From positions 124,001-188,000 of the forward strand of contig NW_026859154.1 in the NCBI RefSeq assembly GCF_026571515.1: a stretch of 64,000 bases of DNA, in the 5' to 3' direction. The position numbers were made by a program, and so were the translations under genes. Position 1 is the stretch's first letter, and each line of letters begins with the position of its first letter. Shown piece after piece: positions 17,283 through 63,797 of the stretch. The notes beneath the pieces were generated by a model. The model was given only the letters and a program-made list of their open reading frames with translations. It searched no databases and was not told the origin of the DNA. The stretch is from Ruditapes philippinarum (Eukaryota).

Positions 17283-20200
17283 TTACGATTGACTTATTTC
17301 TTCACATAGGTTGTCTATTCTTTTCTTCACGTTTATTGCTGAATCAGCAGTATCTGTGTATATATGAAACACCATTCTCGAGAGGTCGGTTTGATCTGTA
17401 GATTTGGTTTCCCAGAACTTAGACACTGTGAAAGAATATTAAAGAAAAATATTATAAATACGGTTGTAATTTACTTTTATTTTTATCAGCTTACTTTATT
17501 ACTCATGTTCATTACTTTGACTGATACAAATACCGTTTTTATTTTTTATTTTAGAAAAAAAAACTATTTTAGTTATCCTATGTTTAATTCAAAACTTTGT
17601 GGGATGCTTTTGAATCTGATTATAATACCGAACGATACATAGCACGCTTTAAGTATTAGGATTAATTGATTATCTGTTCAAATAAATTAATTGTTTGTTA
17701 GTTGTAAACATTGATCAACCGTTTGTGACAGTACTTTGCTTGCAATTTTGGTTTCTATTCCGTGTCTAACGATTGCATATATACTTACAAAATGACATTC
17801 GCTTAGCTGCTTTAAGAGCAGATTTTGCTTCCTTCGTGAATATGTCTTCCATTTCAGCATCGTATACCACAATCTTGATACTTTTTAGGCATCCCTGGTA
17901 ACTGTCGCCGCGAATGTATTTTTGAAATGCGCTTATCATTGTTCTGGCCATTTCGCTGACAGGAAATCCTTTGCCACCTGCATATAGATTATATGTAATT
18001 TCAATCGGGAATTATAACGAAAAATTAATTTTAAAAATAGAAGTTTGAAATGACGAATGTTATAGTACACCGTACGATAAAATTATACACAATTTTTTTT
18101 ATTCTAAACTTGTTACTTTTCAAATGTTTAAATTTGTGTTCAGTGTTGTTTATTCTTATCATACAATAAGTCCGCATAACACGACGTTAATATTTGAAAC
18201 GAGAGAATATAAAAAAGAGGAAATAAAGATTTACTAGGTATGGTGACATTAAAAGAATGCAGTCGTATTGGTTGAAATAATTACCTGTACCCATGGCAGG
18301 AAATGATACTGAACTTAACTTTAAACGTTCTACTTCAGCAAGGCTTTTGACAAAAGTTCTTTTCCATCCCTCGAAACCGTTTCTGGCACGTACATGTATT
18401 ATCTTCTGACATATTAAACTCCCAGAACTTGTTGTCACTAAATCTTCCTTCTTGAATGTTTCGAGGAGTCCGTACGCTGCAAGTATAAGCATGATAAGAT
18501 TTTATAACCAATATTTTGATAACATAAAACTACAGTGCAAAAAAATAAGTTTTCCTTAAGGCTTCAATGGGTTTAATTTAATTTAAAATAAAAACATTAT
18601 AATTGCCATCGAGTAATTTCACTTTGTCCGGGATCGAACCGGTGACCTGTGTCCTATTGAGCTAAGCCATCTTATAGTGGAGAAAACAACTTATAGAAGA
18701 CATTCAAGAAACAAGCTTGTACATTAATGTTGTACAACTTACAAAACTCTTATATTATTTATTTATTTATTTTCTTCTTAAAATGTGTCTACCTATAAAA
18801 TATGGGTGACATCTGAAGGATAGACACTTACAGCTTACAGAAAATGTGTAATATGTTGAAGGTCAAGTACATAACTTGTTGGAAAATCTACTGTTTGTAC
18901 AACAATCATTACTTAAATAAGCATATTCAAATATATAAAAATGTTTTACTTAATCCGTTACTTATGTATTTATATTGCAAACAAAGAAAATATAATAATA
19001 ATAACCTTGGAACTGAATGGTTCTTCCAGCGGCTCTCAAAATTGATTTGGAAATCTCTCCGGTATCTAAATTTAGATCTGATGAAACGCTGTTCACAATA
19101 ACGGCTGTGTCGGCCTTAGTTATGTCCCCTTGCTGTATACTAACGGTCACATGGCCAATCTTTGTTGTAAAGTATGGACCTAAACGGAATTATATATTTT
19201 TGTCGTTTTAGGCGTTTTTTCATGGTTTCAAAGATAAACAAAGTATTTATAAATTAGTTGATATGATAGCAAATTGATAGTATAATTTTAAATCAACTAC
19301 TTATATATTACAGTTTGATTATATTATTTCCAGTTTTTGTGGAAATGAAATACACTAAATTCCCAGAGAACTGAACTGTATATTGTATTATAAGATTATA
19401 TGATATAAATGTATTATGCCATTATGTTTTTCATAATAGTAAAATAAATTGTAAGGTGAAATAGTGGATGGATCCCCGAGACTATTTTACCTATGACTGA
19501 GACAATTAACGGAGTTACCTCTTGGGCTTGAAAAATTAAATAAAAAATGCAACACATTTCTATATACATTAACTTTATACATATGTTAAGTGATGATACA
19601 GCACAACACATCATCACTATTTATAAATGATAGATGTATAACGTATGATAAATTTGAAATGGTAAGTATATAAATTATAATAAATATATGATGCTCAATA
19701 TTCAGAAACATTTACCTAGAAAAACGTTTTCTACTGCAAACATTTGAGTGACAGATATTAAAACTTAAAGGTAAATGTTATATATTATTACCTTCGGAGG
19801 GATATGATATATGTTATATTCGACATAATATATATTCTAGAAATAAAACAAAAATAACAGCAGCATATCTTCAAGTACAATAGAATCCTAAATTTTAAAG
19901 CCAGTTATGGTCGGTTAACCAGCAAATTTTAATAAAGAGTCTTTTTGATAAAAAAAACAATTATCCATCAATCTATTGAAAGAAGCAAAGTAGGATTCTT
20001 CTTATTAGACTCAGGTAAAGTAATATTATAATCTATTACATATATAAAACAAAGCGCATGAGTTATAATAATGATACGAGACAAAATTACGTTCGAAATA
20101 GTCATGATGAAACTTTAATTTTAACCCACCAGTGCTTTTTATAAACACACTCTCCCGTATACAACGTTGTCTGCTGTGTATCATAGACAGTTGGGAAACC

Positions 20201-23200
20201 ATTGCCTTGCGATCGTATGGTGTCTTGTATTCTTCAAATGCCTGGATCATAAAAAATATAAAAAAATATTCCAAACTATTTCATTTGTAAAAAAAAACAA
20301 CATTCTTTTAGAACAATGAGAGCATAATAGAATAGATATGCGGAAGTTTCAGATGTATTTTTGTTCGGGAGAAATGATTTGCATTGCATCATTAGGAATA
20401 GTGATATTGCAAGACCAGGCGACAATGTCGCATGAGATTAGGAAGGATGATACTTTATTTTATGCTTTTGAGTGAAAATTATATTTGATAATTCCACAAA
20501 ATCAAAATAAAATATCATACTTTTCAATGATGAGACTACTTTTTCTTTTTGCTTACAATTCTGACATTATCAGGGCTATTTATGGAAAAGCAAAAATGAA
20601 ATACATATTAAATAACTTAACTTTAATTAATTCCAATCACCAAATTTTATATCGACTGTCTGACTCTTCAAATTTTTGTTTTATTTTTACAGTTTGAAAA
20701 ATTTCACTCCCTTCCACTTGCAAAACTGCTCTTAATAACATTTGGGCATATCTAATTATCCTACGAGCAACAACTGCCTAATGCAATATGAAAAGCAATC
20801 ACAGACACCAGCCAGAAGAAGCAGTAAACAACCCAGCATTTGGAAGACAGCCTTTCAAGAATTCCATGTTTTCCAAATCCCTAGTTGCTTTTTGAACGTT
20901 TATACATTTGTCAACAATTATTTATTGTCTGTTACAATCTTAACATCTTTGAAACAGTGGCGAATGATTTCATTACAAACTTCGTCTGATATATAAGCTT
21001 ATGCCTAAAATAACGGAAATACGGTCGGCTTGGTGTGATATTTTCTTCTACCTGAACTGTTTGTTTTTATTATTAAGACAAGCAATCATTCATATTCTTT
21101 TAAATAAAATAGAAAATATTATCAACATTAAACGTTGATTTTTAACTGACTCATGTATTTATGAGAACTACGCCTAAACTGATGGCTACCAGTTGGGCAA
21201 ACAAACTTTGATATTCAAGTAAATATGAGGGAATTTCATCTTAAATGGTATTCAAGCATAAATTAAAAAATATTGTTTTTGTTTGTTGTGTAAGATGTTG
21301 TTTTATTTCATCGCATGAACTTCTAAAACAGTATGCCACTCGTGAGAATACTGTTTAAAAGCTTACTCAATAAAATAAAATTTCATCTTAAACAAACAAA
21401 TATCCTCTATTTATCAAATATTAATAAAACAGTTTATTAAATATCTAAATCGGGTTTTGTTGCTTTTCAAATAAATAAAAAATCTGTGATAGGAAATAAC
21501 GAAATGCGTATACCCGGACCGATATGTCCAAGTCTTCACGCCACATGCCGTTATAAACATACGTTTTTCAAACGGAAAAGTAATTAATTGACTCTGTTGC
21601 GCATTTAACAGTAGCAAAGTAACATCCATTGGTTCAAATAATTTTTTTTAAATATTATCAAAGATATAACTTACTTTTAGTGCTTGTTCATCTTCTGGTT
21701 GTATTACTATACGAACAGTTTCAAAGGTATGTACAGGATTCTCTTCGCCAAATTCTTCAATGGCTTTAACCATTATTTTTGCAACACGTTGAGGCGGGAA
21801 AGAATGTGTTCCTGTTGCAAGTACTGGGAAAGCTATAGATTTATAACGTTTCTTCATAGCAGAAGAAAGACAACTTTGAACGAAGCAATTCAGTACCTGA
21901 AGAATATTACATATATAACATATTTTCACTAACATTGTTCCCTTATCATATTAAAATCATTTTGAAATTGACACAAAATGACTAAGCGTGACCTTTACTT
22001 TCACCTGAAAATGTCAAACCTGCGCTCTGTATACATCGTTTCATTATGGATAAGTTATATCTTCTGCGTGTGTTATGGAAAATATACTTTTTAACATTTT
22101 AGAGGTAACTATGACAACATTTAATAACATACCCAAAAGTAAAATACTAGTGTGTCGAAACAGAAATTATTATATATTTTGATCTTAAGTTGCACAAAAA
22201 CAAATCAATTAATAGGTAATCATAAACAAATTTAAATGGTAGGATTCATAACAAAATTAAAATATATTTAAAATAGGGAAAAACAGAATCCCTGAAGAAC
22301 GTCCGAAACAACAAAAATGAAAATGTTGCTGGCTGACTCGGTTTGATTAAGGCTGTTCATGGGCATTACTGGTGAGTGCAAGTGGAGTCGGCTTAATCGC
22401 TAAAAAAATAAGAAGTTATAAGTTTTAAGAAATTGTTGAATCTATTATAACTACAATATGTTGAAATCGACGTTAAAACATCCAAACTAACCATAAGATT
22501 ATATAAAACATTTAGTTCACATTTCCTTCACAATGAAAATAATTGTTACCATTTCTGCATGACCTTGGCCATTGTCCCAATCTACAAGAACTCCGTGATA
22601 AATTGCTTTACATTTCAAATTTCCAGCTTTTGATTCAGCAATTTCGCCCGGCAAAATACCATTTGGATATAATTCCTCGAGTTTGGATTCTATTTCATCA
22701 CCGCCGTCTTTTACAATAGCCTTTGAAAGTCTACCAATTCGAAGATTGAGCTCGCTGTTTGTTGAATTAACAATAACGTCTACCTGTTTATACAAGATAA
22801 GCAATCAAATGTTTTTGCTATACCATTTTACTATAGACATGATCTCAAAGTAACAATATAAAACAGAAATCTTTCTCAAAACCACCAGTAATAACTGAAT
22901 TTTGTTTTAAATAAAAATACTTTGAAATTATTTACTTTAGTTTGAAAATAAAGATTTACCATAATTAATCATATGTTCAGGTCTTAAAAAAAGAAAAATA
23001 CTTGCATCTTGTGATACCAATGAGCCTGTCACAATTTCTGGATATATATTATATCCGTACAATTCATTGGCCTCAGCTCGGCTTTCTGTTAACATCTCTG
23101 AAACAATGTAAACAAATATGTAATATATAATCGGGGGAAAAGTGGCAAATGTGTTCTTGTTTGTTTACCAGATCTACAGTATTATGACTGGTCTGAAAAT

Positions 23201-26200
23201 ACACAACATAAAAGTATTAAAGCGATATGAATTAAAATGAAACAGTTAAAGAATTTTCATTATGTTGCACATTTACTTAAAACCATTGTTTTGGCAGTCT
23301 TTTTTTAACAAAAACATGTGCTTTCTGACTTTGAAATTCTATATATACGGTTGATAATAGAGAGCCTACACTGAGCAAACATTATACTGCAAATATTAAT
23401 GGAAACGTCACCTGGAATCAAAATAGTTGACTGAGGTATTTCGTTCTTCATCGCTTTGACAAAAAGCAAAGAAGATTCCTTTTCAACGTCATGCATGTAA
23501 ATATGTCTCAAACAAGTATCAGCCCCGTTTTCCATGAGGTATTCTTTTATTGATTTAATCATCTGTTCCACAATGACATCACTCGGATAACGAAATCTTC
23601 CTGCACCTAAAGGGGGGAAGGCAATGCTTGTAGCCTTCCTATTCTCCCCTTCCAAAAGGCATTTAGTTACGGCGTTGCTTATTATTGATTCCTTTTCACT
23701 ATTTTCCTTCGTCCAGACGGGTAATACGACGTGAATAATTTCTCGACATGGGAGATGCCCGGATGAAGTTATGAACGTGTCTCCATCGTTTACGCATTTT
23801 GCTTCTGAAATGTACTGTTGACATTCTCTTTGGATACTGAAACCACCTACAAAATTAGAACAAATAAAGAAGCAAATGTAAATATCTTAATAAATTGTGC
23901 AAAGTATTTATTTTCAAGTCACGTGCATTTGGAATAGAAAAGGAAACAATGATGAAGTTATAATTATGCTGTTAGTGATAAAAGAACATTTGAGCTTATT
24001 TATTTCTAGTTTAATGCATATCTTTTAATGAAAAAGCCAAATAGATATATTTTTAACGTTTACCTTTATCAATTATTGTGCGGGCTAAACCATATTTGTG
24101 ATCAAATGTAGACTCATTTGGAATGACTATGAAATCAACTTCAGCCTCGGTAATGTCGCCCTTTAGAATTTGAATTTCGCAACCCCCTATCCTACATTCA
24201 GAGAGGCACACGTTTGTAGGAACAACTTGTGATTCTGGTGTGGAAATTCGAATTACGCACTTCTCAGATAACTCAAATGTTTTCAATTTGTCTATACCTT
24301 CAGATGTTCCAAAATATTTGCTCAATTCATGACTATTCACTGTGTGTTCATCTCGAGTTATTGTTTCTGCAACAAAGTCACGCAAATGAGCTATTGCAGT
24401 TTTACAGCTTTTTCTCTCCCCCTTTACAGCAAATCCTTTTCTAGTAAGCTTATCAAGCACATCTATTTCAACATTCATGTCCTCGTAATGTTGTAAAATC
24501 TTCCTGATTGATGTCTTCTTATAACTAAATAGATACCGAAATTCACCAGGATCAAGATGAAAATCCTCCGAAACGTTTGTATGTAAATCAAGAAATTTCT
24601 TTACTTTTTCGACTATTTCATCATGCAAACTATCCCATGACAAAATAAGAAGCCTATTTGTAGAACAGTCGAATTGGACTTTTTCTTTATATTCCGTTTC
24701 TAGCTTTGCAAGGAACTTTTCTTGTTGCAGATGGTCCCTTAGCTCCCTTTCAATCTCTAAGCTTGTACTTCTAAAACATGAACGTATGCACCTCTCTACT
24801 GTTATTAACCCGTTACAAGTTAAACTGTACAGTTCTAGAGTACCCTGTCCTACAAAGTGCCAACATCCGGTAACCTCCGATTTCATCAATATTTGCTTGA
24901 CATAATGGTTGGTTTTACTTGTATGTAGTAAGGCTAGTACCATTGGACTCAAACCTTCAAACATAAATAAGTACATTTATAACATTATATGTTAAATGTT
25001 TAAAAGTTTATGAATGTATTTTTTGAAACACAGATTCATAAAATAGACACGCGACGATAAATACTAGTAGTGTTATAAAAAGGGCATTTTTATCTCAATT
25101 GTTTACTATATCATAACCTGACCTTTTATGTCTTTTTTCGGAAAATCCCGTATCATTTGAACTACTTTGTTCACAGCAGAATCTACCATCTGTTTCCTTC
25201 CCTAGAAAGAAAATACAAACCATATATCAATATAAAATCTACGTCTGTAATATTTTATAACGTGATATTATTTAATAAGCATTTAATTCTACTACTAGCT
25301 GTATAAAAACATCCTGCATCAAAAAAAATATCTTTAATCAATACAAATATTTATATAATATTTATAACAATAAATGACAATAAATGATCGTTTTAAAATA
25401 TCGCCTTTAATCATGTACCTTTAAAACTAATGTTTTGTTTTTAAGTGTCCTTTCCACATTTTTAAGCTTCTCAAAGCTGTTACTAGCGTCCAAAAGTTCA
25501 AATTCGAACGGTTTCAGCTTCATGGTTTTTGTAAGATATTTTCCCTGACTGTCATGTTCCTGTTCAATCGACGTTATCATGTTTTCAACCCGACTGGCCC
25601 ATTTTTCAGCGTCATTCTGATAACCAGCAATAACCACTCTATTCTCTTCAATTTTTATGAAAAATGAGTCTGGATTAGTTGACCCAACACTTTCTATTCT
25701 TGATCGAAGCTGTGATTTTATCTGCATGATAGATAAAACTCAATATTATAATGGATACATCTCTAATTGCTTATTCCTGTCCGAGAACTATAAAAAGTAA
25801 TTACAAATAATCAGTATAAATAAACAGAATGAATGTACTAATCATTTATGACGCATGAATATAGGAACATTAATTATGTTTTCATATTAACATGTTTCTA
25901 GTGTTTGTTTGTTCCAATTGAATGTTTCTGTTGTACTGATAAGTTACAGTGACTTTTGTCTGATGATTAACTGTAGCTTTGAAAACCTAATGACAGACAA
26001 ACATGTTACTGCGAATTCACTTATATCAAAACGGGCATTTTTGTGGGTTCTTAAATTCGTGGATTTTCAATTTCTTGGGAAAAAAAAACTAATGCAAAGT
26101 AATCTTACAGTTAATCGCCGCGCATTTTACTTACCGCATGAACATATCTTTACGTATTACACAGCGCTTGTCAATAAATTCATTACACAAACATCGGATG

Positions 26201-29200
26201 CAGGTTTGTAATATATAGAAAAGTGACATGGCTAGAAGTATTTGTTGAGATAAAATTTCGATGGATCTTAAATTCGTGGATTGACATACCAACGAAAACC
26301 ACGAAAATTCGTGCCCCACGAATAATAATGATTTTACAGTATATTAATGACAATAAAAGTAGAAATATGAAAGTATAATTTGAATAACATAAAAATAAAC
26401 ATTAAAGCGTTACGCCGTGAAACATGACAAATTCAAAAGGAAATGAAGAAAAAAATAGTTTATTTTTAGAACTATGTAGGATGTGTGGCTATCGTCCTTT
26501 TAAGGAAGAGCAAATCTCCTTAAATGATATAAATATCTTATCTAGCAGCATCTAACCTCGTTAACCATATCATCATATAGAAAGTAATATATTTATCTTA
26601 TTGTAAATGGTCACCCTGCAAGATAACATGCAAAACCGCGCTTCCTTTATTTATTTTGTACTGAAGTGGTCAGTTTTTTTGCGTGAATACACATACCATC
26701 TCGACTTCTTGCCATGTATTTTCATGTTTTCCTTTTTTTAATGTTTTTTTCTCCTTTTTTGTGCATATATATTGATATTTTGCCAATAGCCCTTCTAAGG
26801 GCTTTAATACAAATACATATAAAAGTTCTTCTTCTATTAAAATCTAACAAAGCGATGTTTTAAGAGGCGTCACTCAGAATGTGTGTAACGCTACGCGCAA
26901 TTCAATTCAGGTTATATAAAGCTTAAATGATAGAAACGTATGTTTGTTTTACAAGCTCAAATTGCGTGTATGAAAAAACTGTTACATCCAACATGGGGAT
27001 ATTTCGTCTATCGCTTACGATGTTTGAAAAGAACAACGCATTAAAATGCATATTAAATAAAATTTAAAATTCGAGCAATGAATTTAAAAAAAAACATCAT
27101 ATTGTTTCTACACGATAAACATTTTTATTTAGCATACTTTTAGTATGTATTATTCTTATACTCCCTACCTCTAAGGCAAAGTATTGTATTTTTACAGAGA
27201 ACATTTTGCATATCTGAGCCACCACTCCTGTTATATTTTCCTTCCAATCTTTGACCTTTGCAATGGCCGTTTTATCATTTTCATCAATATTGCACTGTAT
27301 ATATAATTTCCTTTCCATTCCAGTATCAGGCCATATGATCTTCCCATGATGACTTTCTACAATTTCTTCAACATCTTTTTTGGGCTGTTGAGACTCTTGA
27401 AGAAAACTTGAAACAAACAAAATTGTATGTCGCAATTTATTTTACAGATACATTGATTACAAAAATAACAGTTCAATTTTACAGTAATGTAGGTATTTGT
27501 GCTAAATCAACAACAAAATTTTTGACTTCATAATTGTATACGTCCAGATATTTCAAAGCCGTTTGAAAATCTCTAAAGATAAATGAATGCAAACATTAAG
27601 AGTTCCGTTAATTAAAAATATATAGGAATAAGACACGTAGCAAGAATGATATATCATAACAAATAAGTAGTTTAGCCTGATTAATCGTCTGATTAATTAA
27701 GTATGTACCGGCAAATGTAGATATTAAGATCATCTATCTTAAAAGGTGCTGGTGTGTTCAAGAAGTATTCTTCGTCGCCAGCAAGAAACGGATAATAAAG
27801 GGACACTTCAAGTTCGGCTTCATTGAGCTTGTGTGGACCTGCCCTAACCAAGGCATCTGCATCTGTCCAAAAAATGTTTGAGATAAAATATTTATCTGCC
27901 TAGAATATATACAGTCTGTCATAACTGTACTGAGCAGTATGTTATGAAATTGAAAGGAAAATATTAACTTATTTTAACTGTCACTTGGTCACTCTGTATA
28001 TACCCTTGGATCGGCACAATGTCTGTTTCATAAACCTGTTCATCTTTGATACTGTAAATACTATATCTTGCTAGATGTTGAATCATCAGAAATAATTATC
28101 GCATATACATAATAAGGAAATTGTGTAAAGGGCGTACTTTAAACATCAACATTATGTTGCTATATATTTCCTTGTCACAAGACATACGCGTGTCTATATT
28201 CATTTCTCGGAGCTGCATCAGCTAAATGTAGAAGGCAAACAAGTTATTAAAATATCTATTGTCTTTCATGATTTCAAATCTCATTCAAATCTAGTGGACA
28301 GATTTGACCATTCTACAAATGTAAGAAATATGTATAAGCCGCCCGGTTTTTTTCAGCTACAGTTTTGTTGAAAAATACAATTAAGTCGGTGTAATTTAAA
28401 ATCAAAATTAAAGATCTAAATGAAAATCAAATTATGATCTGTGTTCGTGTGAAAAGTATATACTATTGTTTTTATGTATGCTGTTGAACTACAAAAGAAG
28501 ATTGCTTTGTTAATATGACAGGGAAATATTTAAAACACTATGACTTAAATCATAAGTATTTATAAAATAAAGACAAAGATAATATGATTTCCTTTTAAAA
28601 TACATTTTCTAAATACAGAGATATGAAAAATGTACCTTCATCTTTAGTAAATGAGATTATATAATCGTTCCAGACATCTCTGTATTTGATATATTTGATA
28701 TGATGAATTGATCCGTCTTTTGAGAACTGTTTTAAATAATGCTCCAATGCATTTGGTGTAGTTTCCATGGGAACGCCTTGAACACGAACTCTACATGTTC
28801 GTTCGACAGGTAATGGCATCCATTTTGTTTCGTTTGCTTTTAACTTACATTGGAACTCCGTCAAATCTGAAATGGTTAATGTTTACCACTACTAGCTACT
28901 GCACAAAAAAATCATTTTATTTTTCATTCATTTATTTATTTTTGCTATTACTTGATAGTTTATAATTATAAAGTATCTTTGTATATACCAAACAGTTTTA
29001 AAATCAACGGGTTTCAGCTTTCATTTTCTGTTGAAAAAATAATTCTGTGTAGTTTCAAACTACTAGTAAATATTTCAGTAATTTTATCCATATCAATGGT
29101 AAACCTTCTTCAAAATGGCGTCCCGAGAGCTATTTATAACGCGTAAGAAACGTTCGTTTCTAAAAATAGAATATCGGGGCTTTACAAATTTAAATATAGA

Positions 29201-50959: not shown

Positions 50960-53900
50960 ATGGCTTCACATGACAGGGGACCGACTAAAAACATTTATGA
51001 TTTTCCACGATCTCAACCAATCCCAACCATTCCTATTACACCTGAGTCCACCGAAACAGTTTCATCAACGCTTCATGTAAATTTGGAGCCGACTAAAAAC
51101 ATTTATGATATTCCACGATCACAACCGATCCCAACCATTCCTATTTCACCTGAGTCCACCGAAACAGTTTCACCAACGCTTCATGTAAATTTGGAGCCGA
51201 CTAAAAACATTTATGATGTTCCACGATCACAACCGACCCCAACCATTTCTACTACAACAGCATCCACCGAAACTGTTTCATCAACTATTCATGAAAATTT
51301 GGAGCCGCCGAAATCTTCCGATGATCGGCCAACATTTCAGAAAGCAGTACATGATGAAAGTTTTGATACATCAAACACAAAAGCAACCGACGATGATTTT
51401 AAATCACCGGTGACGAAAACCGATGAGCCTCTCGTTACAAGTGAGCAACCCACTACTCACAAGGATACTGACAATAAAACTGAAGATTGTCTAGAAAATT
51501 CTAAGTGTCAGTCCGATAAAAGCCCAGACTGTCTCCCAATGAATGGTGCAATGAAGTTAATGTCAGACATATCACCGATGGATTCCGAGCAGAACTCTAA
51601 AGGCAAGTCATAAATAATAATAAACTTTATGTTATGGCTCATTTACAAATCAACATATGCAAGTCACAAAAATCTAGTGCAATAACTTATCTACATTTTT
51701 CGGTTTAACATATTCTGTGAATTCACATGCATATATATATAATGTCAGTATGTTATTACTTTGTAAGGAAAACAGCTTTTAAAAATAAATCAATTTGCAA
51801 GACAATTGAACTTATTTAAGATGAAAGCTACTAATACAGTGAAAATTTGGTTTTGAATTTCTATTTAAGATCATGATTATGAGGCCATAGATGAAGACGC
51901 ATTGGATACGAATCCAACGCGATCGACTTATCCACCACCAACGATTCCGATGTCACCTCGGCCTAACAGAGCAAGGTCGACATCATCCCTCAAACCAGTG
52001 CGGATAGTAGACGTAGCAAACACTTACATGGATCTATCAACCCTAACAACGGATGAAAACAGACAGATACTATTAACAGGAATCAGAAAAACCATTTCCA
52101 TAAAAGAAATCGAAACCATACTGAAATCGGATTTACTTAAAAGAAATGATGACCTTGAAGATATCAAGGTCGACAGAGTTCACGGAGAAGCCGTTGTTAT
52201 GTTGAAAAACGGAAGAGGTAAGTTTTAGGTTTTTCATTAAGTATATTAAAAAGGAATAAAGTACGAAAATTCCTTCTTACAGCGCCATAACATACGCTTC
52301 AGCCACATATGCTCGGGACTTGCGTGCTCGCAATGAAACAGATGATTTTCGTTGCAAACCATTGTGTCATTTGTAGCACAAAATAATTGAAATGTATCAA
52401 AAATTAAAAATGAAATGAGCCGCGTCACGACAAAACCAACACAATGATTTTGCGACCAGCATGGATCCAAACCAGCCTTCGCATACGCGCAGTCTGATCA
52501 GGATCCATTATGTTCGCTTACAAACCTATTAAAAGTAGAAAAACTGATAGCGAACAGCATGGATCCTGATCAGACCATGCGGATGCGCAGGCTGGTCTGG
52601 ATCAATACTGGTCGCAAATCCATTATGTTGGTTTTGCCGTGACACGGCTCATATGTGAAATTTATATGCATGACAAACACACGAAGTACCCGTACATTGA
52701 AGACAAAACTGGAGCTGCTTGGATTTGAACACGCATCAGTATGGTTGAATAATCAAGGCGCACCCAATATACTACAACTTCTTTCTAAAAAGACTATGGT
52801 CAATATTATAGTATTACTATACAACCCATACACACATGACTTATTTTTTTTTGAAGTGAACTCATCCATGTCATATTTACAAAGGTTGCGATATAACTAA
52901 TATTCACCAGTATCTATTGTGACCGGTAGTGCACCGTGAAGCTATAACGTTAAAAGTTTGTTTATACCCGGGGATTAGCTTGGAAAACCATTGATTTGCC
53001 GAGTTCCGGATATTATCTATTGATTTAACGTTTTCCACACTTACATAAGTGGCAAATAAAGATAAATACTATTTAATTTAAGCGGAAAGTATTTTTGCTT
53101 TGAAATAATATTTCATGTTCAGTAAGACGATAATTGTCCAATTCAAACTTTGTTACCATTAGCTGCTAGCGATGTCTTGGATAAAGCAAAACCTGAAGGG
53201 AAAGTAACATTGCAAGATACAGAGGTCTATGTATCGCCATTGAACCAGGCTCCAATTGATCCACGTAAGATGTTTGTATTTGATTTTGACAAATCATTTG
53301 AAGATATGATTCTATACGATGATGCAACACTTGGAACACGGCCCACAAAAGAAATTAGAGGAGAAAATAGGACAGCTGTTTTGTTATGCTTTGATATTGA
53401 TGTTTCTCAAGGTATAATTTTTTGTTGTTATAATCAAATTTGAGCCGTGCCATGACAAAACCAACATAGTGCGTTTGTGATCAACATGGAGCCAGACCAG
53501 CCTGCGCGTTTACGCAGTCTGATCAGAATCCATGCTGTTCGCTTACAAACCCTTTTACAAGTAGAGAAACTGATTGCAAACAGCATGGATCCTGATCAGA
53601 CTGCGCGGATGCGCAGACTGGCTTGGATCCATGATGGTCGCAAACGCACTGTATTGGTTTTGTCATTGCGCAGCTTATTTAATGAGTACTAAAAACTTTT
53701 TTTTTTTAAATACTATGACATATTTTTATGCTGATATTGTGACTCATTTAAATCAAAGTTTATATTTTATCAAGTAAATGATATAATCATTATTGTCGTT
53801 TTATACACGTATTTGCTTTCTTTCCAAATTAGGTTGTTTCGTCTGTAATAAAACATATTTTATTAACTATTTGCAAGATCATATTCTTATAATTAACATG

Positions 53901-56900
53901 TATTCTCAATGAATTTTAAAATTAACACGTATTCTCAATGAATTGGTCAACTTGAATTGTAAAAAATGTTAAAACAAATAATTTTTGAGCCTCGTTTTTC
54001 AAGCATGTAATACTTTGTTTATATATGAATGTTATCATTAATAACTATTGTTTCAATCAAGGAGAAGATTTTCTAAAAAAAAGCGTCTAGCTTTCTTCTC
54101 AATTCTTTTTGCATTTTATTGTAATATATTGTGTATATACTGTATATTTGGCTAACATAAAATATTTTTTTAACCAAACTTAATTCAAGATGGCATCAAA
54201 CAAGGTATTCGTGAAAGCTTAACTACAAACAATATACATAAAAACAAATTCATTTTTACTAATTTTGAATTTTTTAACACATTTCGGTGAAGAAATAAAA
54301 ATAATTTGTACAAATTATTGAAATATCGTGACAAACGTCACGTAAACTTTATGTTATATCTGTTTACATGAATGACTATTCATATTCAAGTTATATCAAT
54401 TATGTAAGGAAAACTATATATTGGATAAGATAAATAAACATCTCTTAATTCAAAATATTAGCACAACATGCGTGATTACTTTTATAAAAGAATCCGATAT
54501 ATAAATATAAATCCTAAACTCAAATAATATTTAAATGCCCATTAAAAAATCTAAAATGTATAGGAATAGCAAATTAGACTTATACATGAAATTGGATAGA
54601 TTTACGTGGCACACTATACATTAAAACTATAATTGCGTCCTTGATCAGTGGTAATTTTATTAAAACTGAATCGAGTCATTGAATATAGTTTCATATTTAT
54701 TAGGTGAATTTGATTTTTACCAAATATTCAACATGCTGACCTCTTACATATGAATTCCTAAAAACTATTTACAATCTTTTGTATTAGAAGATATTCAAAT
54801 AAAAACGGCAATTTCAAAGATACGGTATCTAACAGTACTTTCTTGCTAATAAAAGTTTTGTGAACAAAATATCGTTTAAATCGAGGATAAATCTTTTATA
54901 ACAAACCGTTGCTAACTGTAAAGCTTCACCACGTAAGATATATATTTATTTTAAGTGGTTACATTGATAGTAGAATCTAATTAAAGATGTGGTTTATATT
55001 TTCAATTACCAAAAAATATATCAATTATCACAAAGCAATCTTTTATTTTATTCTTATTTATAAAATGAAGTTCGTTTACTTGCACATGTCACGGAACCGA
55101 GATATACAGTTCATATATTTAACCATTTTAAGGTCAATTAGCGTTCATTCAATAGAAATGAAGCATCATTCTTTCTAATATTACTATACAAAAAGACATT
55201 TTCAAAAACTGATAATTTGGTTCTACCTTTTACCTTTTTATCATAAACTACCTTTGTAAAAGTTGCTATGTAAATTTCATGAATATTTTGGCATCAATAT
55301 GAAAAATGTATCTAGTTTTCCAGCATTATGTTTCAACTTCAAAGCGATACCTTGTATAACAGTTAAAGACGTTCACGTTTGCTGGACATTGATGTATTAA
55401 TCATTAGAAGAATGTTCCTTTCTATATTCCACTCTTTATTTTACGTTCAGATGGTCTGTTCTACTTCCACTTCTTCACAACTAGAAATTTGTTCTAAATT
55501 TTTCAATTGTCAAACAAATTGTCACAAATGAACTTAAATCATTAATTTGAACCTACGTTTAGAATGAAAATTACCAAATAAAATCTGCGACATGGTCTTG
55601 GTCAGTTCATTGAGAATGTGTTTAATTCAAGCATAACTTTATCGTCTATTTCCACTATTAACTTCAAATAGGATTTGAAGCTCGATACATTCTTACATAT
55701 AAAGTGTGATCTGATTAAATGTGCATTTACATTTTACATTTACTACATTTGAATACTCTTAGATCAGACATTTCAACATCTACTTACCGCCTATAAATGG
55801 AATATGTTGCCTGTGGAACGTACAAATAGAGTTCGAATTAAAGGCGTTTCTATGGAAACAACACCTGAGGACGTGAAAGACTATTTCAATAAAAAGCTTT
55901 CAAATGATGAAAGCATAACATCTATGGAATATAGAGAACACTTGGGGGACTATATCATCACGTTTTCTACAATAAATGGTAAAATTTATGTCTTTCTAAT
56001 TAGATACAATTTGATAAAGTGAAAAAAAGAACAAACCAAATATTTATAGAGAAAAGGAATGTTTGTCAACAAAATAGTTTTTTAATGCCCGGGTTGGGAC
56101 GTCCTTTTAGAAATTTTGGAAGGGGAAAAAATTTTAAAAAAGTAAAAAAAAAGAATTTAAAACCCCAAACCGTGCCCGGGCGGGGTTTTAAATTTTTGTT
56201 GATTTCGAATCATTTGCCCCTCAACGCTGTGAATTCGGATCCCCCCAAAGGGCTTTGAACCCCTTAATTTAAAGTATAATTAGAGCGTTGTGGTTTATTC
56301 AGGAAACCGCTCGTTTTCCTCCTTAAATAAAAAATTTTGTATAAAAAAATTTGAATCCCTTTAAAGAAGCAATTCAAAAATTTTCCCTGGAAAGTAAATT
56401 TTTTATTGTTTTTTTTTTTTTTTCCCTTTACTTTTTATCTTTTTTATTCTTGTTTTTTTTTTTTTCTTTTTAAATTATGAAATTTTAAGTTTAAGTTTTT
56501 TAAAGATTTTTGACAAAGAAATATATTAAAAAGGAGTGTGTATAAAAATATATCCCATTTGAGTTTTTGGGTTTTTGAATCACTAAATTTTCCTAGCTTT
56601 AAAAATACTTTGGTAGTGAAAATAAAGGGTCTTTTTTATACGGGAATTTTTTTAAAAAGTAAAAGGGGAACTTTAACTTTTTTTTTGTGTTGTTTCTTTT
56701 TTTACAAAGGGGTTCAGTAATCATGAATATGTGATTCTGACTTCTATATTTTAGTCTTGATTTCATCAACTCAAAGGAATCTCATTTCGTTTTATATACA
56801 CCTTCTGTTATAAACCGTTTACATATATATTTTGATACAATAGTCAAAAGCATGCATATTTACAGATGCAGAGAGAGTGGAAAACCAAGAGATTAACTCT

Positions 56901-59900
56901 ATAAATGGAAAATAAATTGAAATAGCTTATTACTATCCTTATCTAGAAGATGAGGATGCATATATATTTAATATTCCACAACCAAAGAAAATGCGGTACG
57001 TTGACAGAGATATTTGCGGGTATGTATAGATTTTATTTCTTTTAATAGAAAGTTACGTAATTGAGATTGATGAATTTGCTCGGATGGTGAGGGATTCAGG
57101 ATAAGAAGAGTTCATATTATCATTGTTGTCTGAAAATTAAAATAAAGGATTTTGGGTTTCTTTTGAAACCATCATTCCCAAAACCGGGGTTTTCAAAAAA
57201 GAACTTTTTAAAAAACCCTTTTCAGCATAATTTTTTTAAAAGTGAAAACAAAACAAAAACGGGTTTGAAAAAAAAAAAAAAGGAAAATTTTTTTTTTTCA
57301 TTATTTTTTTCCCCTGTTCCTTGCAAATTGTTAAAAAACCCGGTATTTTAAACCCGGGAAAAAAAACATAATTTTAACCAATACTTTAACATTTTTTTTT
57401 AAAAAGAAAAATTGTTCTTTTTTAAAACTAATTATTTTTTTAAAAATTGTAAACAAATCATGAAAATTTAAAGTTTATTTTTGATTTTTATAAAAGCTAA
57501 TTTAAATTTTTTAAAATCCTTTTAAATCGTTTGATTTTTAATGGTTTTTTTATTTTTCAAAAAAAAAAAATTTAAAAATGCCAAAAAAATTTAAAAAAAC
57601 CCTTAAAAAAAAAATAAAATTTTTAATTTGTAATTTCCCCAAATTTGAAAAAAGAGAAATGAATGAAATATTTTTTAAAAGTTTACATAAAATGTGGAAA
57701 AAATATTTGCTGTAATCTTTTTACATATTTTTTGATTTTTAAAAATTTTTTTAAAAAGTAAAATTAAATAGTTACATATATAATATCTCAATAAGTGGGG
57801 GGTAAAAACCCTTAAATTAAAACCATACGGGATTTTTAAGGGTCAATTAAAAAAACCTGAAGATTTTGGGGGCTGTAAATGTCTGGACTAATTTGAGGAT
57901 TTTTTTTATTATAATAACCATAAGACCCTGACTAGTATTACATGAAAAAGAAACTACCCAATCGCAAAACCCCACTCAAAATAATGTCAAAAAAATTGGG
58001 CTACTGTTACTAGTTTAACATCCCGTTTATTTAGGTATCTACAAACATCCGCTAAATACAAAAAAGAGTTAGAAGAAAGTGTAGCGTCCCATCATGGAAA
58101 AGTTCGTTGGCCTAGTAATGAAGGAGCATATATGGAGGTGATGTGCAATGTGGATGAACGAGACAGAAAGGCAAAGATAAAAGTTGAAGACTGGGAAGAA
58201 CATGCGGCCTCGGCAAAAGGAAAAAGGGGGGGGNNNNNNNNNNNNNNNNNNNNNNNNNNNNNNNNNNNNNNNNNNNNNNNNNNNNNNNNNNNNNNNNNNN
58301 NNNNNNNNNNNNNNNNNNNNNNNNNNNNNNNNNNNNNNNNNNNNNNNNNNNNNNNNNNNNNNNNNNNNNNNNNNNNNNNNNNTTTAAAAATTTTTTTTAA
58401 AAAAAAATTTTTTAAAATTTTAAAATTTTTTTTGGGGAAAAAAAGGGGGGGTTTTTTGGGGGGGGTTTTTAAAAAAAAATTTTTTTTTTTTCCCCTTTCC
58501 CAAAAAATTTTCCCCCAAAAACCGGGGGTTTCCCCAAGGTTTTTTGGGGGAAAAAAGGGGTTTTTTAAAAAAAAAGAAACAAAATTTAGGGAAAAAAAAA
58601 CCCCTTTTTTTTTTCCCTTTTTTTTTAAAATTTTTTATTTTTTTTTGGGGGGAAAAACCCCTGGGGGAAAAAAAAACCCAAATTTTTTCCCAAAAAAAAA
58701 AAAACCTTTAAAAAAAAAAATTTTCCCCCCTTTAAAAAAATTTTTAAAAAATTTTAAAAAGGGTTTTTTTGGGGGAAATTTTTTTAAAAAAAAAACCCCC
58801 CCCGGGGGGGGAAAATTTTTTTTTGGGGGCCAAACCTTTTTTTTTTTCNNNNNNNNNNNNNNNNNNNNNNNNNNNNNNNNNNNNNNNNNNNNNNNNNNNN
58901 NNNNNNNNNNNNNNNNNNNNNNNNNNNNNNNNNNNNNNNNNNNNNNNNNNNNNNNNNNNNNNNNNNNNNNNNNNNNNNNNNNNNNNNNNNNNNNNNNNNN
59001 NNNNNNNNNNNNNNNNNNNNNNNNNNNNNNNNNNNNNNNNNNNNNNNNNNNNNNNNNNNNNNNNNNNNNNNNNNNNNNNNNNNNNNNNNNNNNNNNNNNN
59101 NNNNNNNNNNNNNNNNNNNNNNNNNNNNNNNNNNNNNNNNNNNNNNNNNNNNNNNNNNNNNNNNNNNNNNNNNNNNNNNNNNNNNNNNNNNNNNNNNNNN
59201 NNNNNNNNNNNNNNNNNNNNNNNNNNNNNNNNNNNNNNGTTTTTGGGGGGTTTTTTGGGTTTTTTTTGTTTAAAAATTTTTTGGGGGGGGAAAAAAAAAT
59301 TTTTAATTTTTTTAAAAAAAAAAAAACCTTTTTAAAAAATTTTTGGGTTTTGTTTTAAAAAATTTTTAAAAAAAAATTTTTTAAAAAAAAAATTTTTTTT
59401 TGGAAAAAAAATTTTTTTTTTAAAAAATTTTTAAAAAAATTTTTTTCCCCCAAAAAATTTTTTGGGAAAATTTTTGGGAAAAAATAAATTTTTTTTTTTT
59501 ATAATTTTTTTTTAAAATGATTGGGGTTTTTAAAAAGGTTTTAAAAATTTTGGGTTTTTAATTTTTAATTTTTTTTTAAAAAAAAGGTTTTAACAAAAAA
59601 TTTTTTTTAAAAAGGGGGGTTTTAAAAAAAAATTTTTTTTTTTTTAAAAAAAAATTTTAAAAAAACCAAAAAAAAAATTTAAAAAAACCCTTTTCAATTT
59701 TTTTTTTTTTAATTTTTTTGTAAAAAACCCAAAAAAAATTTTTCCCCAAAAAAGGTTTAAAAAAAATTTTTTAAAAAAAAAAAAATTTTTTAAAAAACCC
59801 TTTTTTTGGGGAAAAAGGGGCCCCCAAAAAAAAAAATTTTTTGGTTTTAAAAATTTTTAAAAGGAAATTTTTTTCCTTTAAAACCCCTTTAAAAAAATTT

Positions 59901-62900
59901 TTTTTTAATTTGGGGTTTTTTTTTTGGGGAAAAAAAATTTTTTTTAAAAAAAAAATTTTTTTTTTTAAAATTTTTAAAAAAATTTCCCTTTTTTTTCCCC
60001 CCCCCCCAAAAATTTTAAAAACAAAAAAAAATTTCCAAAAGGGGGGTTTTTTTTAAAAAAGAAAAAAAAATTTTTTTTTTTAAAAAAATTTTTTTTTTTT
60101 TTGGAAAAAAAATAAAAAATTTTAAAAAAAAAAAAAAAATTTTTTTAAAATTTTAAATTTTAAAAATTTTAATTGAAAAATTAAAAAATTTAACCGGGAA
60201 AAAAAAACCCCCCGNNNNNNNNNNNNNNNNNNNNNNNNNNNNNNNNNNNNNNNNNNNNNNNNNNNNNNNNNNNNNNNNNNNNNNNNNNNNNNNNNNNNNN
60301 NNNNNNNNNNNNNNNNNNNNNNNNNNNNNNNNNNNNNNNNNNNTTTTAAAAAGGGAAAATTTTAAAAAATTTAAAAAAAAAAAAAAAATTTTAAACTTTT
60401 TGAAAGGGGGGTTTTAAAAAAAAGGGCCCCCCTTTTCCCTTGGGTTTTTTAAAAAAAATTTTTAAAAATTTTTTTAAATTTTTTTTAAAAAACCCAATTT
60501 TTAATTTTTTTTTTAAAAACCTTTTTTCCCCTTTTTTTTTAAAAAAAATTTAAAAAAAAAAAAAACTTCCCCCCCTTTTAAAAAAGGGGAAATTTAAAAA
60601 AATTTTTTTTTTTGGGGGGGGCAAGGGTTTTAAAAAAAAACCCCCCTTTTTTTTAANNNNNNNNNNNNNNNNNNNNNNNNNNNNNNNNNNNNNNNNNNNN
60701 NNNNNNNNNNNNNNNNNNNNNNNNNNNNNNNNNNNNNNNNNNNNNNNNNNNNNNNNNNNNNNNNNNNNNNNNNNNNNNNNNNNNNNNNTTTTTTGAATTT
60801 AAATTTTTAAAAAAAAAAAATTTTTTTTTTAAAAAAAAAAATTTTTTTTTTAAAAAAATTTTTTTCCCCCAAAAAAAAAAAAAAACCCCCCCCTTTTTNN
60901 NNNNNNNNNNNNNNNNNNNNNNNNNNNNNNNNNNNNNNNNNNNNNNNNNNNNNNNNNNNNNNNNNNNNNNNNNNNNNNNNNNNNNNNNNNNNNNNNNNNN
61001 NNNNNNNNNNNNNNNNNNNNNNNNNNNNNNNNTAATTTAAAAATTTTAAAAATTTTTTTTTTTTTTTAAAAAAAAATAAAAATTTTTTTTTTAAAAATTT
61101 TTTTTTTCCTTTTTTAAAATTTTTAAAAAAAATTGGGGGGGGTTTTTTTTTTCCTTTTGGGTTTTTCTTTTTAAAAACCCCTTTTTTTTTTTTTTCCCCC
61201 CAAAAAAAAATTTTTTTTTAAATTTTTTTTTTAAAATTTTTTTTTTAAAAAATTTTTAAAAAGGGGGAAAAAAAAATTTTTTAAAAAAAATTTTGGGTGG
61301 GGGGTTTTTTAAAAAGGTTCCCAAAAAGAAAAAAGGGGGGAAAAAAAATTTTTTTTCCTTTTTTTTTTTTTTCCCCCCTTTCTTTTTAAAAGGGGAAAAA
61401 AAAATTACCGGGGTTTTAAAAAAAAAATTTTTTTAAATTAAAATTTTTTTTAAAAAAATTTTAAAAAGGGGGGGCATTTGCAAAGGAAATTTTTTTAAAA
61501 AAAACCCCCCGGTTTTTTTCCCGGGAAAAAAATTTTTTTTTTTTTTCCCCTTTTTTTTAAAAAAAATTTTTTTTTTTTTAAGGGAAAAAAATTTTAAAGT
61601 AAAAAAAAAAATTTAAAAATTTTTTTTCCCCGGGGTTAAAAAAGGGGAAACCCCCCCAAAATTTTAAAAAAAAAGGTTTTTTAAAAAAAAAAAATTTTTG
61701 GTTTTTTTTTTTTTAAAAAAATTTTTTTCCCAAAACAATTTTTTAAAAAAAAAAATTTTTTTAAAAAAGGGCCCCCCCTTTTTTTTTTTCCCCCCCCAAG
61801 GCCGGGGGGGGAAAAAAATTTTCTTTTTTAAATTTTTCCCCCTTTTTTTAAAATTAAAAAACCCCCCCCTTCCCCCGCTTCCTTTTTTTTTTTCCCCCCA
61901 AAAATTAAAAAAGGGAAAAAAAAAAAATTTTTAAAAAAAANNNNNNNNNNNNNNNNNNNNNNNNNNNNNNNNNNNNNNNNNNNNNNNNNNNNNNNNNNNN
62001 NNNNNNNNNNNNNNNNNNNNNNNNNNNNNNNNNNNNNNNNNNNNNNNNNNNNNNNNNNNNNNNNNNNNNNNNNNNCAAATTTTGGGCCCCCCCCCCCCCC
62101 CCCCAAAAAAAAAAAAAAAAAAAAATTTTTTTTTTTACAAAAAAAAAAAAAAACCCCCCCAAAAACCCCCAAAAAAAACCCCCAAAAACCCAAACCCCAA
62201 AAAAAAAAAAAAACCCCCCGAAAATTTTTAAAAAAAAAATTTTTTTAAGGGGGGCACATTACAGACCGATTGTGGAAGAAAACATCTCGAAAAGCTAGTT
62301 GATGAGTATGATGGCAGACTTATCTATCAGATACAAGGAGACGACTTATATATTGTTTCAGTGGACTATTTGCATCAGGAGATCATTAAAAAAGTGAAAA
62401 CCTTCCTAGATTCACATTCTTACCTCGAAGAAACGGTTCTTTTTGACAGTGGTGTATTCCTCTACCTGTTTAACAATAAAAAGAGGGATGTTCAACAAGT
62501 TATCAAGCAATTCAAGGACTTGAATGTCGAAATAGATATAGTTGATAGAGAAACAAGAAAGGGGTTTACGGTAAAGGGAGATAAACAGGTATGCAAGATT
62601 GCCTTAGCACAGCTTAATAGCATCAAAGATAATGTCATAAGGACAGATATGAATGTCAGTGACGAATTCTTTCACAAATTCCTTCAACGTCCGGAGGGCA
62701 TGGAAAAAATGAAAAATATTCAGTTGGCAGAAAAATGCATTATTCAAATACCAATGGCAATACCAGAGAGAGGTAGTCGACAACGATCGGAAAATATACT
62801 TGCAAAATCTAAATTTGGACATTGCGACCTACAAATTAAAGGCGGCGACATTACTGATCAAATTGTTGATTTTATTGTTAACCCAACAGATAGAATGTTG

Positions 62901-63797
62901 GAGCATAAACGGGGTTTAGGAAGAACATTAGTTGATAAAGGTCTGAATATTTTGTTTATAATAATATGTTTTAAAAAAGGCATTAATTAAGCATTCAAAT
63001 TAATTCTAGATTTTTTTGTTTTGATGTTCGGTACGATTTAGCGATTTCGGTGCTTTAATGTAATTGCAGGATTAACAACATACGATCGTTCATTGAAAAT
63101 TATTGATATGACTATGTTTTTATTATTTTGCCAAAGCAAATGTATGTCGTTACGTTTTTGATTTTTCTTTTGCATTTACAAAATTTGAAATAAAAACTAT
63201 ATATATTTAAACAAGACAAAGCAGTGCCTTTCTTAACAAAAATATATATAAGACAGATGATGTATTACTAACATGTGACAATAGAAACATACGGGAATAA
63301 CATTTGGTTGTAAACGGTTAAGTTATGGTTTTAACTGTAAGTATTTTGTGATAACTATTTTTGTTTTGCTTTTTTCTAAGGCGGGTTTCTTGTTTCAAAG
63401 TCATGTGAGGAAAAAAAGCGGTGCATTAAAGAGTTTGATGCTTTCGTTGGGAGTGCAGGTGACCTTCCATATCGTGGTATAATACATGTGGTCATACCTA
63501 CCTATTCAGTTGAACGTAATGATAGAAAACAGGAGGATATACATCACGCAGTTAGACAATGTCTTCTTGAAGCAGACAAACAAAATGCAACAAGTATTGC
63601 GTTTCCGTTGCTAGGGTCAGGAAGATTTGGATATCCTGATGACATCATTGTTGACAGTATGATGAAAGAAATTAAAAATTATCTGCTTCAAAATGGAACA
63701 AGCACATTCTTGAGACGTATCACAGTGTGTGATATAGAATCTGATTTAACGATTCTTCTCCCAGAATCAATAGCTGAGGACTTTTCTCTTCCAGCAG
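50960..63797 (+). CDS. PARP14: Gene B: second PARP14-like paralogue (5' part; continues past window end; possibly a pseudogene or affected by an assembly error)
   Basis: Exons 50960-51602 (GC donor), 51870-52217, 53163-53411, 55763-55978, 56866-57019 (in-frame TAA 56913-56915), 58035-about 58215 (runs into a gap), about 62255-62940 (partial), 63381-63797. Intron phases match gene A, and exon 3 (249 nt) and exon 5 (154 nt) have identical lengths. Similarity is clear (LPVERT.RVR..GV.METTP; SHHGK..WP; DIT...VDFIV; SIAFP.LG.GRF.YP). Confidence 0.82.
50981..51304 (+). repeat. Coding tandem repeat, 3 x 108 bp (36 aa; PTKNIYD[F/I/V]PRSQP...NLE)
   Basis: Units start at 50981, 51089 and 51197; a degenerate fourth starts at 51305. 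Confidence 0.95.
52417..52650. mobile_element. MITE, 234 bp, long imperfect TIRs (Sola-like)
   Basis: GAGCCGCGTCACGACAAAACCAACACAATG ... CATTATGTTGGTTTTGCCGTGACACGGCTC; flanks AAAT/ATAT. Confidence 0.85.
53442..53676. mobile_element. MITE, 235 bp, same family, TSD ATTT
   Basis: Long imperfect TIRs; ATTT at 53438-53441 and 53677-53680. Confidence 0.85.
58216..62254. other. Unreliable assembly: homopolymer-inflated sequence with six N gaps
   Basis: Almost only A/T/G/C runs; begins inside exon 6 and ends inside exon 9 of gene B. Milder degradation at about 56050-57950. Confidence 0.95.

Follow-up and report, generated by a model that had tools for sequence, protein, structure and literature searches.

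The window examined here is the whole 64,000-nucleotide stretch at contig C7641:124001-188000 of the Ruditapes philippinarum genome (1.41 Gb), and coordinates below are window positions unless a contig is named. It carries two head-to-head PARP14-like paralogues, gene A and gene B, both of them expressed, derived from PARP14, devoid of the transferase domain and equipped with a conserved tyrosine cassette. Their start codons lie at 32547 (minus strand) and 50960 (plus strand), a separation of 18,413 bp, and their exon plan and intron phases are equal for every B exon that can be read; an earlier, sequence-only reading of this DNA, which had described a head-to-head PARP14-like pair with ATGs 18.4 kb apart and a common exon plan, was correct on both counts. 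The two proteins share 43% identity over 825 amino acids, and A is 47% identical to its counterpart in Mercenaria. The features of gene A are as follows:

17283..32547, minus strand: gene A, PARP14-like; 18 coding exons, 1661 amino acids (tail, three RRMs, KH array, macro1-3 inside a split KH7, stop)
31932..32547, minus strand: exon 1, acidic disordered tail with EDIYVDM (Y185, codon 31995-31993)
30665..31096, minus strand: exon 2, cassette DHIYNEIN (Y240, codon 30995-30993), EINYEEM (Y245), proline cluster, first half of RRM1
23412..24170, minus strand: macro1, split by intron 9; loop-1 Asn to Glu, loop-2 hydrophobic to Arg; predicted hydrolase-dead
22784..23005, minus strand: intron 11, GC-AG, overlooked by the RefSeq model and spliced out in contig X1 record 4
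17789..22783, minus strand: exons 12-17, macro2 and macro3, reader-type by sequence
17283..17425, minus strand: last coding exon, strand and helix closing the split KH7, then stop, without KH8, WWE or ADP-ribosyltransferase (ART) domain
15947..17282, minus strand: 3' untranslated region, its extent shown by contigs X1 records 4 and 2; record 2 skips a repeat at ~16430-16965

The model of gene A, built from splice signals, is open for 1661 amino acids from 32547 to 17283. RefSeq model LOC132755435 (record P0001), the one protein returned by a search with A exon 9, represents the same gene and is identical to it over the first 1240 residues only, after which it reads into intron 11, whose donor is GC. 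A contig assembled from read run X1 is spliced across this intron, which rules out the RefSeq end at 1262 amino acids as the main form and corrects a public annotation that halts at a GC-AG intron and misses two macro domains. A 2577-nt contig of run X1 aligned on exons 9, 10, 12 and 13, its pieces for exons 10 and 12 being spaced by 92 letters, and fits exons 9-18, through the stop into the 3' untranslated region. Its 3' fit was made by length: with exons 14-17 added, 201 nt remain for the last exon, placing the contig end at 17225, 58 nt beyond the stop and matching its listed end distance. Exons 15, 16 and 18 stand at equal contig depth in the difference table of the run. The stop was also considered as a hidden splice donor (TC/GTAATC overlapping TAA), a candidate ruled out for the main form because the contig continues through it and no KH8, WWE or ART exon lies downstream; a minor isoform is conceivable.

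Gene B runs beyond the right edge of the window and is partly obscured by the assembly:

50960..63797, plus strand: gene B, exons 1-10 inside the window
50960..51602, plus strand: exon 1, three 108-bp repeats, each coding NIYDxP; a predicted GC donor, present also in a second copy on contig C10821
51870..52217, plus strand: exon 2, cassette DHDYEAID (Y218, codon 51878-51880), proline cluster, ANTYMDL, first half of RRM1
56913..56915, plus strand: in-frame TAA in exon 5; 56913 is G in X1 and X5 contigs, and the codon is one for Glu in the C10821 copy
56000..62250, no strand: unpolished, homopolymer-rich assembly with masked stretches, hiding exons 7-8 and part of exon 9

The unpolished, partly masked segment at ~58220-62250 takes in exons 7-8 together with the 5' portion of exon 9, and exon 6 is known as an open reading frame only. 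Exons 11-18 lie at window-equivalent positions 64006-71174 (L001:2006-9174), extending ~7 kb beyond the window and ending after the helix that closes KH7. Read contigs show the exon 2-3 joint in runs X2 and X5, exons 3-4-5 joined in one X1 contig, exons 4-5 in X5, and at least 57 nt of upstream exon sequence attached to exon 1. Both A and B are thus spliced in transcriptome contigs; for the 14 runs used, which are only guessed to be RNA (X1, X2 and X5 among them), the cDNA nature rests on these exact exon joins. The in-frame TAA of exon 5 is most likely an assembly error, and B as a pseudogene was ruled out, since this stop is missing from two runs and from the second copy. Looking with B exon 1 for a longer annotated protein gave no scoring match among 5448 candidates, which is weak evidence.

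The second copy covers the 5' half of B at C10821:1700-12300 on the minus strand (loci L008-L009), with 83-92% DNA identity, and is either a haplotype or a recent duplicate. Its exon 1 begins in another unpolished stretch, its exon 3 is frameshifted, and it apparently has two tail repeats where B has three.

The domain content of both proteins is that of a shortened PARP14. Our own profiles find three macro domains in A and no KH8, WWE or ART; B, completed from L001, likewise has three macros and terminates at the same place, without these domains. No ART, WWE or KH8 exon was detected in 132 kb (20 kb to the left, the window, and 48 kb to the right), where the best ART match had an E-value of 0.77 and a positive control recovered all 10 macro-coding open reading frames. 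Genome-wide, PF00644 has 63 matches, only one of them on the A/B contig, 120 kb away on the minus strand. The transcript of A, whose 2577-nt contig includes no ART exon, the genomic models of both genes and the 132-kb search therefore agree with the earlier statement that the complete copy has no ART domain. As judged from sequence, A and B descend from PARP14 but lack the C-terminal ART (PF00644) that defines PARP/ARTD enzymes.

Human PARP14 has three macros that interrupt a KH domain, and after this split KH come a further KH, the WWE and the ART (PMC10450202). A and B share with human PARP14 (ARTD8) the three RRMs, the KH array and the three macros in a split KH, and differ from it in lacking KH8, WWE and ART and in a macro1 without the hydrolase residues. 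The Mercenaria protein P0002, as annotated, keeps KH8 and three macros and lacks WWE and ART. Its AlphaFold model (predicted local distance difference test score 86.6, from a 60-sequence alignment) has human PARP14 macros as top fold matches and predicts a strand-helix-helix-strand unit before the macros and a strand-helix at 1067-1088 after macro3, followed by KH8. A and B stop directly after the KH7-closing helix, as does the transcript-derived P0032, and this loss at a domain boundary fits a retained, folded protein. Together, the A transcript, the A and B genomic models and the Mercenaria orthologue model support A and B as non-catalytic PARP14-like proteins, as the sequence-only reading had proposed.

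The first macro domain has probably lost its eraser function as well. Human macro1 reads NASN...HYGG with GVF in loop 2, and A reads IPNE...HKYG with GRF. A hydrolase macrodomain is described as requiring a loop-1 Asn/Ser and Gly and a loop-2 hydrophobic and aromatic residue (PMC10221186); at these places A has Glu, Gly, Arg and Phe, B has Asp, Gly, Arg and Phe, and Mercenaria has Asp, Gly, Arg and Leu. The macro1 of all three thus departs from the hydrolase pattern, with two of the four features, the loop-1 Asn and the loop-2 hydrophobic residue, missing in A and B, for which loss of macro1 hydrolase activity is predicted. G832E is reported to block the macro1 site of human PARP14 (PMC10499325); the Gly probably matching G832, by a numbering that we infer, is kept, so residual binding may be possible. 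The earlier description of a remodelled macro1 pocket stands as to the altered residues, which point to hydrolase loss and not to a new pocket. Such decay is widespread in the family. Of 104 hits, 46 do not match a crude macro1 motif, in some cases since the macro that comes first belongs to the macro2 type, and repeated loss of macro1 hydrolase activity in mammals has been linked to host-virus conflict (PMC10221186). Macro2 and macro3 match human MD2/MD3 by sequence and fold, with the pocket Gly and loop 2 kept; a reader role is reported for human domains of this type (PMC13224862). The best solved-structure and fold matches are PARP14 macro domains.

To place the genes among their relatives, residues 179-1209 of A were searched against 1.84 billion representatives, giving 5520 hits, the best 150 of which were examined and are PARP14-like. 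The best match among these 150 is Mercenaria P0002, with P0035, on the same chromosome, supplying the N-terminal part; separate orthologue fragments of A and of B are found in records P0003 and P0060. Pfam identifies in P0001 the third RRM (PF23085, E-value 2e-10) and first KH (PF23084, E-value 8e-9) of PARP14 and one macro (PF01661). Three FastTree trees of 75, 66 and 35 rows were built from rows picked by domain content or rank, leaving out isoforms and P0001 and entering B, Mercenaria and a third Ruditapes gene, gene C, as composite rows. In these trees A, B and Mercenaria group together with support 1.0, gene C is the sister of this clade (0.97), and A, B and C sit in a clade (0.998) with Mya and Dreissena proteins having intact or degenerate ART, the latter in Mya P0016 and Dreissena P0017; deeper branches are unstable. 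An open-access literature search found no publications on this transferase-less clam PARP14 subfamily. Gene C lies 115 kb from A/B on the same contig:

C7641 ~339600-310050, minus strand (loci L010-L013): gene C, PARP14-like; RRM-KH, macro2-3 only and no macro1, ART with an H-Y-I type triad

Gene C also has a 670-codon acidic exon rich in Gln, Pro and Tyr, and it shares the tyrosine cassette of A and B.

Both A and B have a tail of 280-300 amino acids before RRM1. In most of the hits that best fit the Pfam set of vertebrate PARP14 (e.g., P0026), by contrast, RRM1 starts within ~20 residues. FoldIndex predicts disorder for A 1-250 and most of B 1-250, as had been claimed. The accompanying description of these tails as Tyr-rich did not hold, since their 11 tyrosines in 540 residues amount to 2.0%, below the 2.6% of other PARP14-like tails. 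Enrichment in PxxP motifs is true of A (6 against 1.6 expected, p 0.003) but neither of B (p 0.25) nor of Mercenaria (p 0.45). Nor are the tails wholly non-alignable: the last 60-70 residues before RRM1 align between A and B (E-value 0.008) and in a six-way alignment.

What distinguishes the tails is the context of their tyrosines. We scored a rule of a hydrophobic residue or Pro at +3 with acidic neighbours against 1000 shuffles. In A and B, 7 of 11 tyrosines fit, where shuffles give 1.6 (p 0.001); if the repeats of B are taken as one, A, B and Mercenaria together have 9 fitting tyrosines against 2.2 expected. Six close relatives give 7 of 32 (p 0.04) and two scallop proteins 11 of 20, and across the clade the count is 27 of 110 in the 14 proteins with a tail of at least 100 amino acids, the other 3 of the 17 clade proteins having no tail of that length. 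As controls, 17 other PARP14-like tails give 7 of 109 (p 0.74) and the folded part of A gives 1 of 39. Taken one protein at a time, B and the scallops show a strong signal, and A, Mercenaria and the Mya pair a borderline one.

The cassette defined by the alignment combines Y[DEN]xI[DEN] with a proline cluster that includes a basic residue and, ahead of RRM1, a short strand. It is shared by A, B, the B copy, gene C, Mercenaria and Mya P0098, so that the motifs are conserved in relatives; Y[DEN]xI[DEN] occurs 13 times in 256,411 residues overall. Besides it, A has two YxxM and B three YDxP motifs of their own, and of the 8 motifs that score in the two proteins, 6 are of the YxxP or YxxM kind or similar, with Pro or Met at +3. 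YDxP, YxxM and Y[DE]xI are motif classes of Nck/Crk/p85-type SH2 domains. Disordered arrays of YDxP, YxxM and acidic YxxI with proline clusters occur in p130Cas, Dok, Gab and IRS, which the A/B tails appear to resemble; A and B differ from them in having no SH3, PH or PTB domain, no sequence homology and 3-5 motifs per protein. Tyrosine sulfation was set aside, no signal peptide or membrane segment being evident by eye.

The conserved Y-x-x-I can also be read as an LC3-interacting region (LIR), whose consensus is acidic [WFY]xx[LIV] and takes Trp or Phe as readily as Tyr. A and B would then be selective-autophagy receptors taking ADP-ribosylated or RNA cargo to ATG8 membranes, an option that draws on one Y-type LIR-like motif per clam tail at a conserved place, on ATG8-family genes in the clam and on human PARP14 reportedly working, to go by a title, in p62 bodies. 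We judge it unlikely, because the cassette position is Tyr in 6 of 6 sequences and never Phe or Trp, and the Pro or Met type +3 of 6 of the 8 motifs is left unexplained by a LIR; these two features favour phosphotyrosine-SH2 docking.

Similar acidic tyrosine motifs just before the RRM block are found in gene C, Mya P0098, Pecten P0004 and Mizuhopecten P0005, which differ from A and B in keeping an ART with an H-Y-I type triad; gene C and P0098 have no macro1, and the scallop pair has an intact-looking macro1 and an extra N-terminal macro. The co-occurrence of motifs and ART in these proteins indicates that the tail came first and that ART loss was a separate event. The tyrosine motifs are conserved but not tied to ART loss. 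Scallop P0004 and P0005 carry 5-6 dense acidic tyrosine motifs (YxN, YxxM) between the extra macro and the RRM block and, with macro1 and ART intact-looking, offer the best model for kinase control of an active PARP14.

The trees suggest the following course of events. A clam PARP14 with a tyrosine cassette before RRM1 would have been duplicated, gene C keeping ART and losing macro1, and the A/B ancestor keeping three macros and losing WWE-ART before the Ruditapes-Mercenaria split; Ruditapes A and B would additionally have lost KH8. The absence of ART, together with predicted floppy tails whose tyrosine motif is conserved across clam species, makes a role as non-enzymatic scaffolds likely. Our best explanation, held at about even confidence, is that A and B are expressed transferase-less PARP14 duplicates that would act as tyrosine-phosphorylated, ADP-ribose-reading scaffolds. 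IRFs could drive their induction through upstream sites resembling the interferon-stimulated response element (ISRE), Src/Abl/receptor-type kinases would phosphorylate the tail tyrosines, and Nck/Crk/p85-type SH2 domains would bind the phosphorylated tails, recruiting SH2/SH3 adaptors. Macro2 and macro3 would serve as readers of the ADP-ribose that other PARPs attach, and the KH array may make protein contacts rather than bind RNA. For the docking tail already proposed in the sequence-only reading, the motifs are conserved and non-random, while phosphorylation and SH2 binding are its conjectural part; none of the papers listed in the open-access search was on PARP14 tail phosphorylation.

Several points weigh against this explanation. 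The tyrosine rule was written after these sequences had been seen, A, P0098 and P0016 taken singly reach p values of only 0.06-0.09, and P0017 has one motif (p 0.42). No motif matches were found in P0058, P0009, P0030 and P0019, all in or near the clade, and the per-protein signal is absent also in P0038 and P0090. The clam cassette has no aligned counterpart among the scallop motifs, and the sister position of the scallop branch to the clam clade is not firm, with support of 0.45-0.97 over the three trees. The Mercenaria orthologue joins two gene models, P0035 and P0002, by inference, with its ART loss taken as annotated. The 3' end of B, like its exon 1-2 joint, is a genomic prediction and not drawn from reads, and exon read depth is low (1-7x in ~4% of one raw run). 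Putative ADP-ribose binding by macro2/3 rests on 25-30% identity to the human domains, and the fit of Y-x-x-I to a LIR counts here as well.

A second possibility is that A and B act as dominant-negative partners of, or decoys for, PARP14s that keep ART, gene C for example, and that the cassette is a localisation signal inherited from the common ancestor. They would compete with these proteins for one docking site, for KH partners or for ADP-ribosylated targets, or else would titrate an antagonist made by a pathogen. Gene C, as the sister gene on the same contig with the same cassette, would be a natural partner, catalysis-independent roles through KH-like contacts are described for human PARP14 (PMC11080071), and the repeated loss of macro1 activity in host-virus conflict fits too (PMC10221186). 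We consider this rather unlikely as the whole account, as a pure decoy would not need the motifs that A (two YxxM) and B (three YDxP) have added. It is compatible with the scaffold explanation and does not exclude it.

Slow decay of duplicates under fast domain turnover, with the tail tyrosines neutral in acidic disordered sequence, finds support in a large and shuffled family (32 macro1-like and 63 ART matches in the genome), the degenerate ART of P0016 and P0017, and the low read depth. It appears quite improbable given that the open frames and all splice sites are kept at 43% A-B identity, that an ART-less orthologue exists in Mercenaria, that the truncation falls at a domain boundary, and that the motif is kept while its flanks diverge and control tails are not enriched.

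The RRM-KH array bears on a further alternative, in which A and B are mainly RNA-binding antiviral sensors and the tail only tunes them. The whole array is kept, and KH1-KH2 of human PARP14 binds single-stranded RNA (PMC10450202). However, the canonical signs of RNA-binding KH and RRM domains, GxxG loops and RNP1/RNP2 aromatics, are missing in A: its KH array has no GxxG in residues 545-1020, and no aromatic RNP residues were seen by eye in RRM1 and RRM2. KH8, one of the human RNA-binding fragments, is lost as well. The case for RNA binding made in the sequence-only reading is accordingly weak, and we regard the sensor alternative as very improbable. The KH-like domains of human PARP14 are reported to mediate protein contacts (PMC11080071), which is consistent with the role given to the array in the scaffold explanation.

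The immune context comes from upstream sites and family analogy. The sites are:

32968..32979, minus strand: ISRE/IRF-like site, 0.43 kb upstream of the A ATG
48238..48249, plus strand: ISRE-like site, 2.7 kb upstream of the B ATG, unchanged in the C10821 copy
50004..50015, plus strand: second ISRE-like site of B, in a stretch missing from the C10821 copy

Sites of this kind had been claimed for each gene and are present upstream of both. The pattern AGTTTCNNTTTC occurs 3 times in the window against 0.34 expected, a count reached by 2 of 100 shuffles. The stricter GAAANNGAAA[GC]T, chosen after looking, occurs 5 times in 132 kb, and 3 of these precede the ATG of A or B by no more than 2.8 kb; for the loose GAAANNGAAA there is no enrichment (14 observed, 8.9 expected; 10 of 100 shuffles). 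A GTGAGT donor 210 bp downstream of the 48238 site may end a non-coding first exon of B. Oyster IRFs activate ISRE reporters (PMC5557890), and oyster PARP14 is among listed antiviral effectors (PMC12803857), beside which an Aplysia paper is cited (PMC8195618). On these ISRE-like sites and the family analogy, a putative immune role can be assigned to A and B. The immune module envisaged in the sequence-only reading is partly supported. Upstream of gene C, at 1-9 kb, there are three ISRE-like matches, all of the low-complexity GAAAAAGAAA kind.

A splice acceptor lies directly upstream of both ATG exons and B has its upstream exon sequence, so the ATG distance is not the promoter distance. The likely promoters lie ~15 kb apart with repeats in between, and no shared promoter sequence was found between A and B, nor any sign of a common bidirectional promoter; the head-to-head layout therefore reads as an inverted duplication.

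Human PARP9, which works with DTX3L, offers a comparison, as it is likewise a PARP14-derived macro protein that regulates rather than writes ADP-ribose. It arose by partial PARP14 duplication, kept an ART-fold domain and an active macro1, and is limited to jawed vertebrates (PMC10221186). A and B, in contrast, have no ART fold, a dead-looking macro1 and a full RRM-KH array, and no DTX3L-like gene was seen between them. It is possible, although we put this forward tentatively and would not favour it on balance, that a PARP14 branch in bivalves was tied to tyrosine-kinase signalling through a conserved phosphotyrosine cassette and was split in venerid clams, independently of vertebrate PARP9, into a writer (C, cassette and ART) and enzyme-dead readers (A and B, cassette and macros), a module that would connect receptor or phagocytic signalling with ADP-ribosylation in innate immunity. 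In vertebrates, PARP14-type enzymes are known to be controlled at the level of transcription and by PARP9/DTX3L. SH2-type docking motifs in a PARP14 lineage would, if true, link tyrosine kinases directly to mono-ADP-ribosylation, and a natural PARP14 with neither writer nor eraser activity would offer a ready means of testing what PARP14 does without catalysis. Should the motifs turn out not to be phosphorylated, the pair would represent ordinary domain loss in an expanded invertebrate family.

Repeats are frequent around the genes. A short, palindromic, very high-copy repeat occurs at 30256-30420 (A intron 2) and at 52410-52650 and 53440-53660 (B introns 2-3), and it draws most reads when runs are aligned to A and B. 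A tandem array at 13036-14321 holds 4.3 copies of a 298-bp unit at 97% identity, with a related unit at ~40500-40740. Between the genes, 37500-37620 and 38590-38700 are, by eye, similar CpG-rich stretches in inverted orientation, possibly DNA transposon ends. On C10821, upstream of the B copy at 15100-18200 (plus strand, L009), open reading frames resemble, by eye, a DIRS-type retroelement with zinc knuckle, reverse transcriptase-like and methylase-like pieces.

At the left of the window, two long open reading frames (216 and 230 codons) lie at 7578-9025 on the minus strand; the first starts with a hydrophobic segment, possibly a signal peptide. A short Cys-rich frame lies nearby at 6125-6325. 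Pfam gave no match for these frames, which probably belong to a gene for a secreted or matrix protein.

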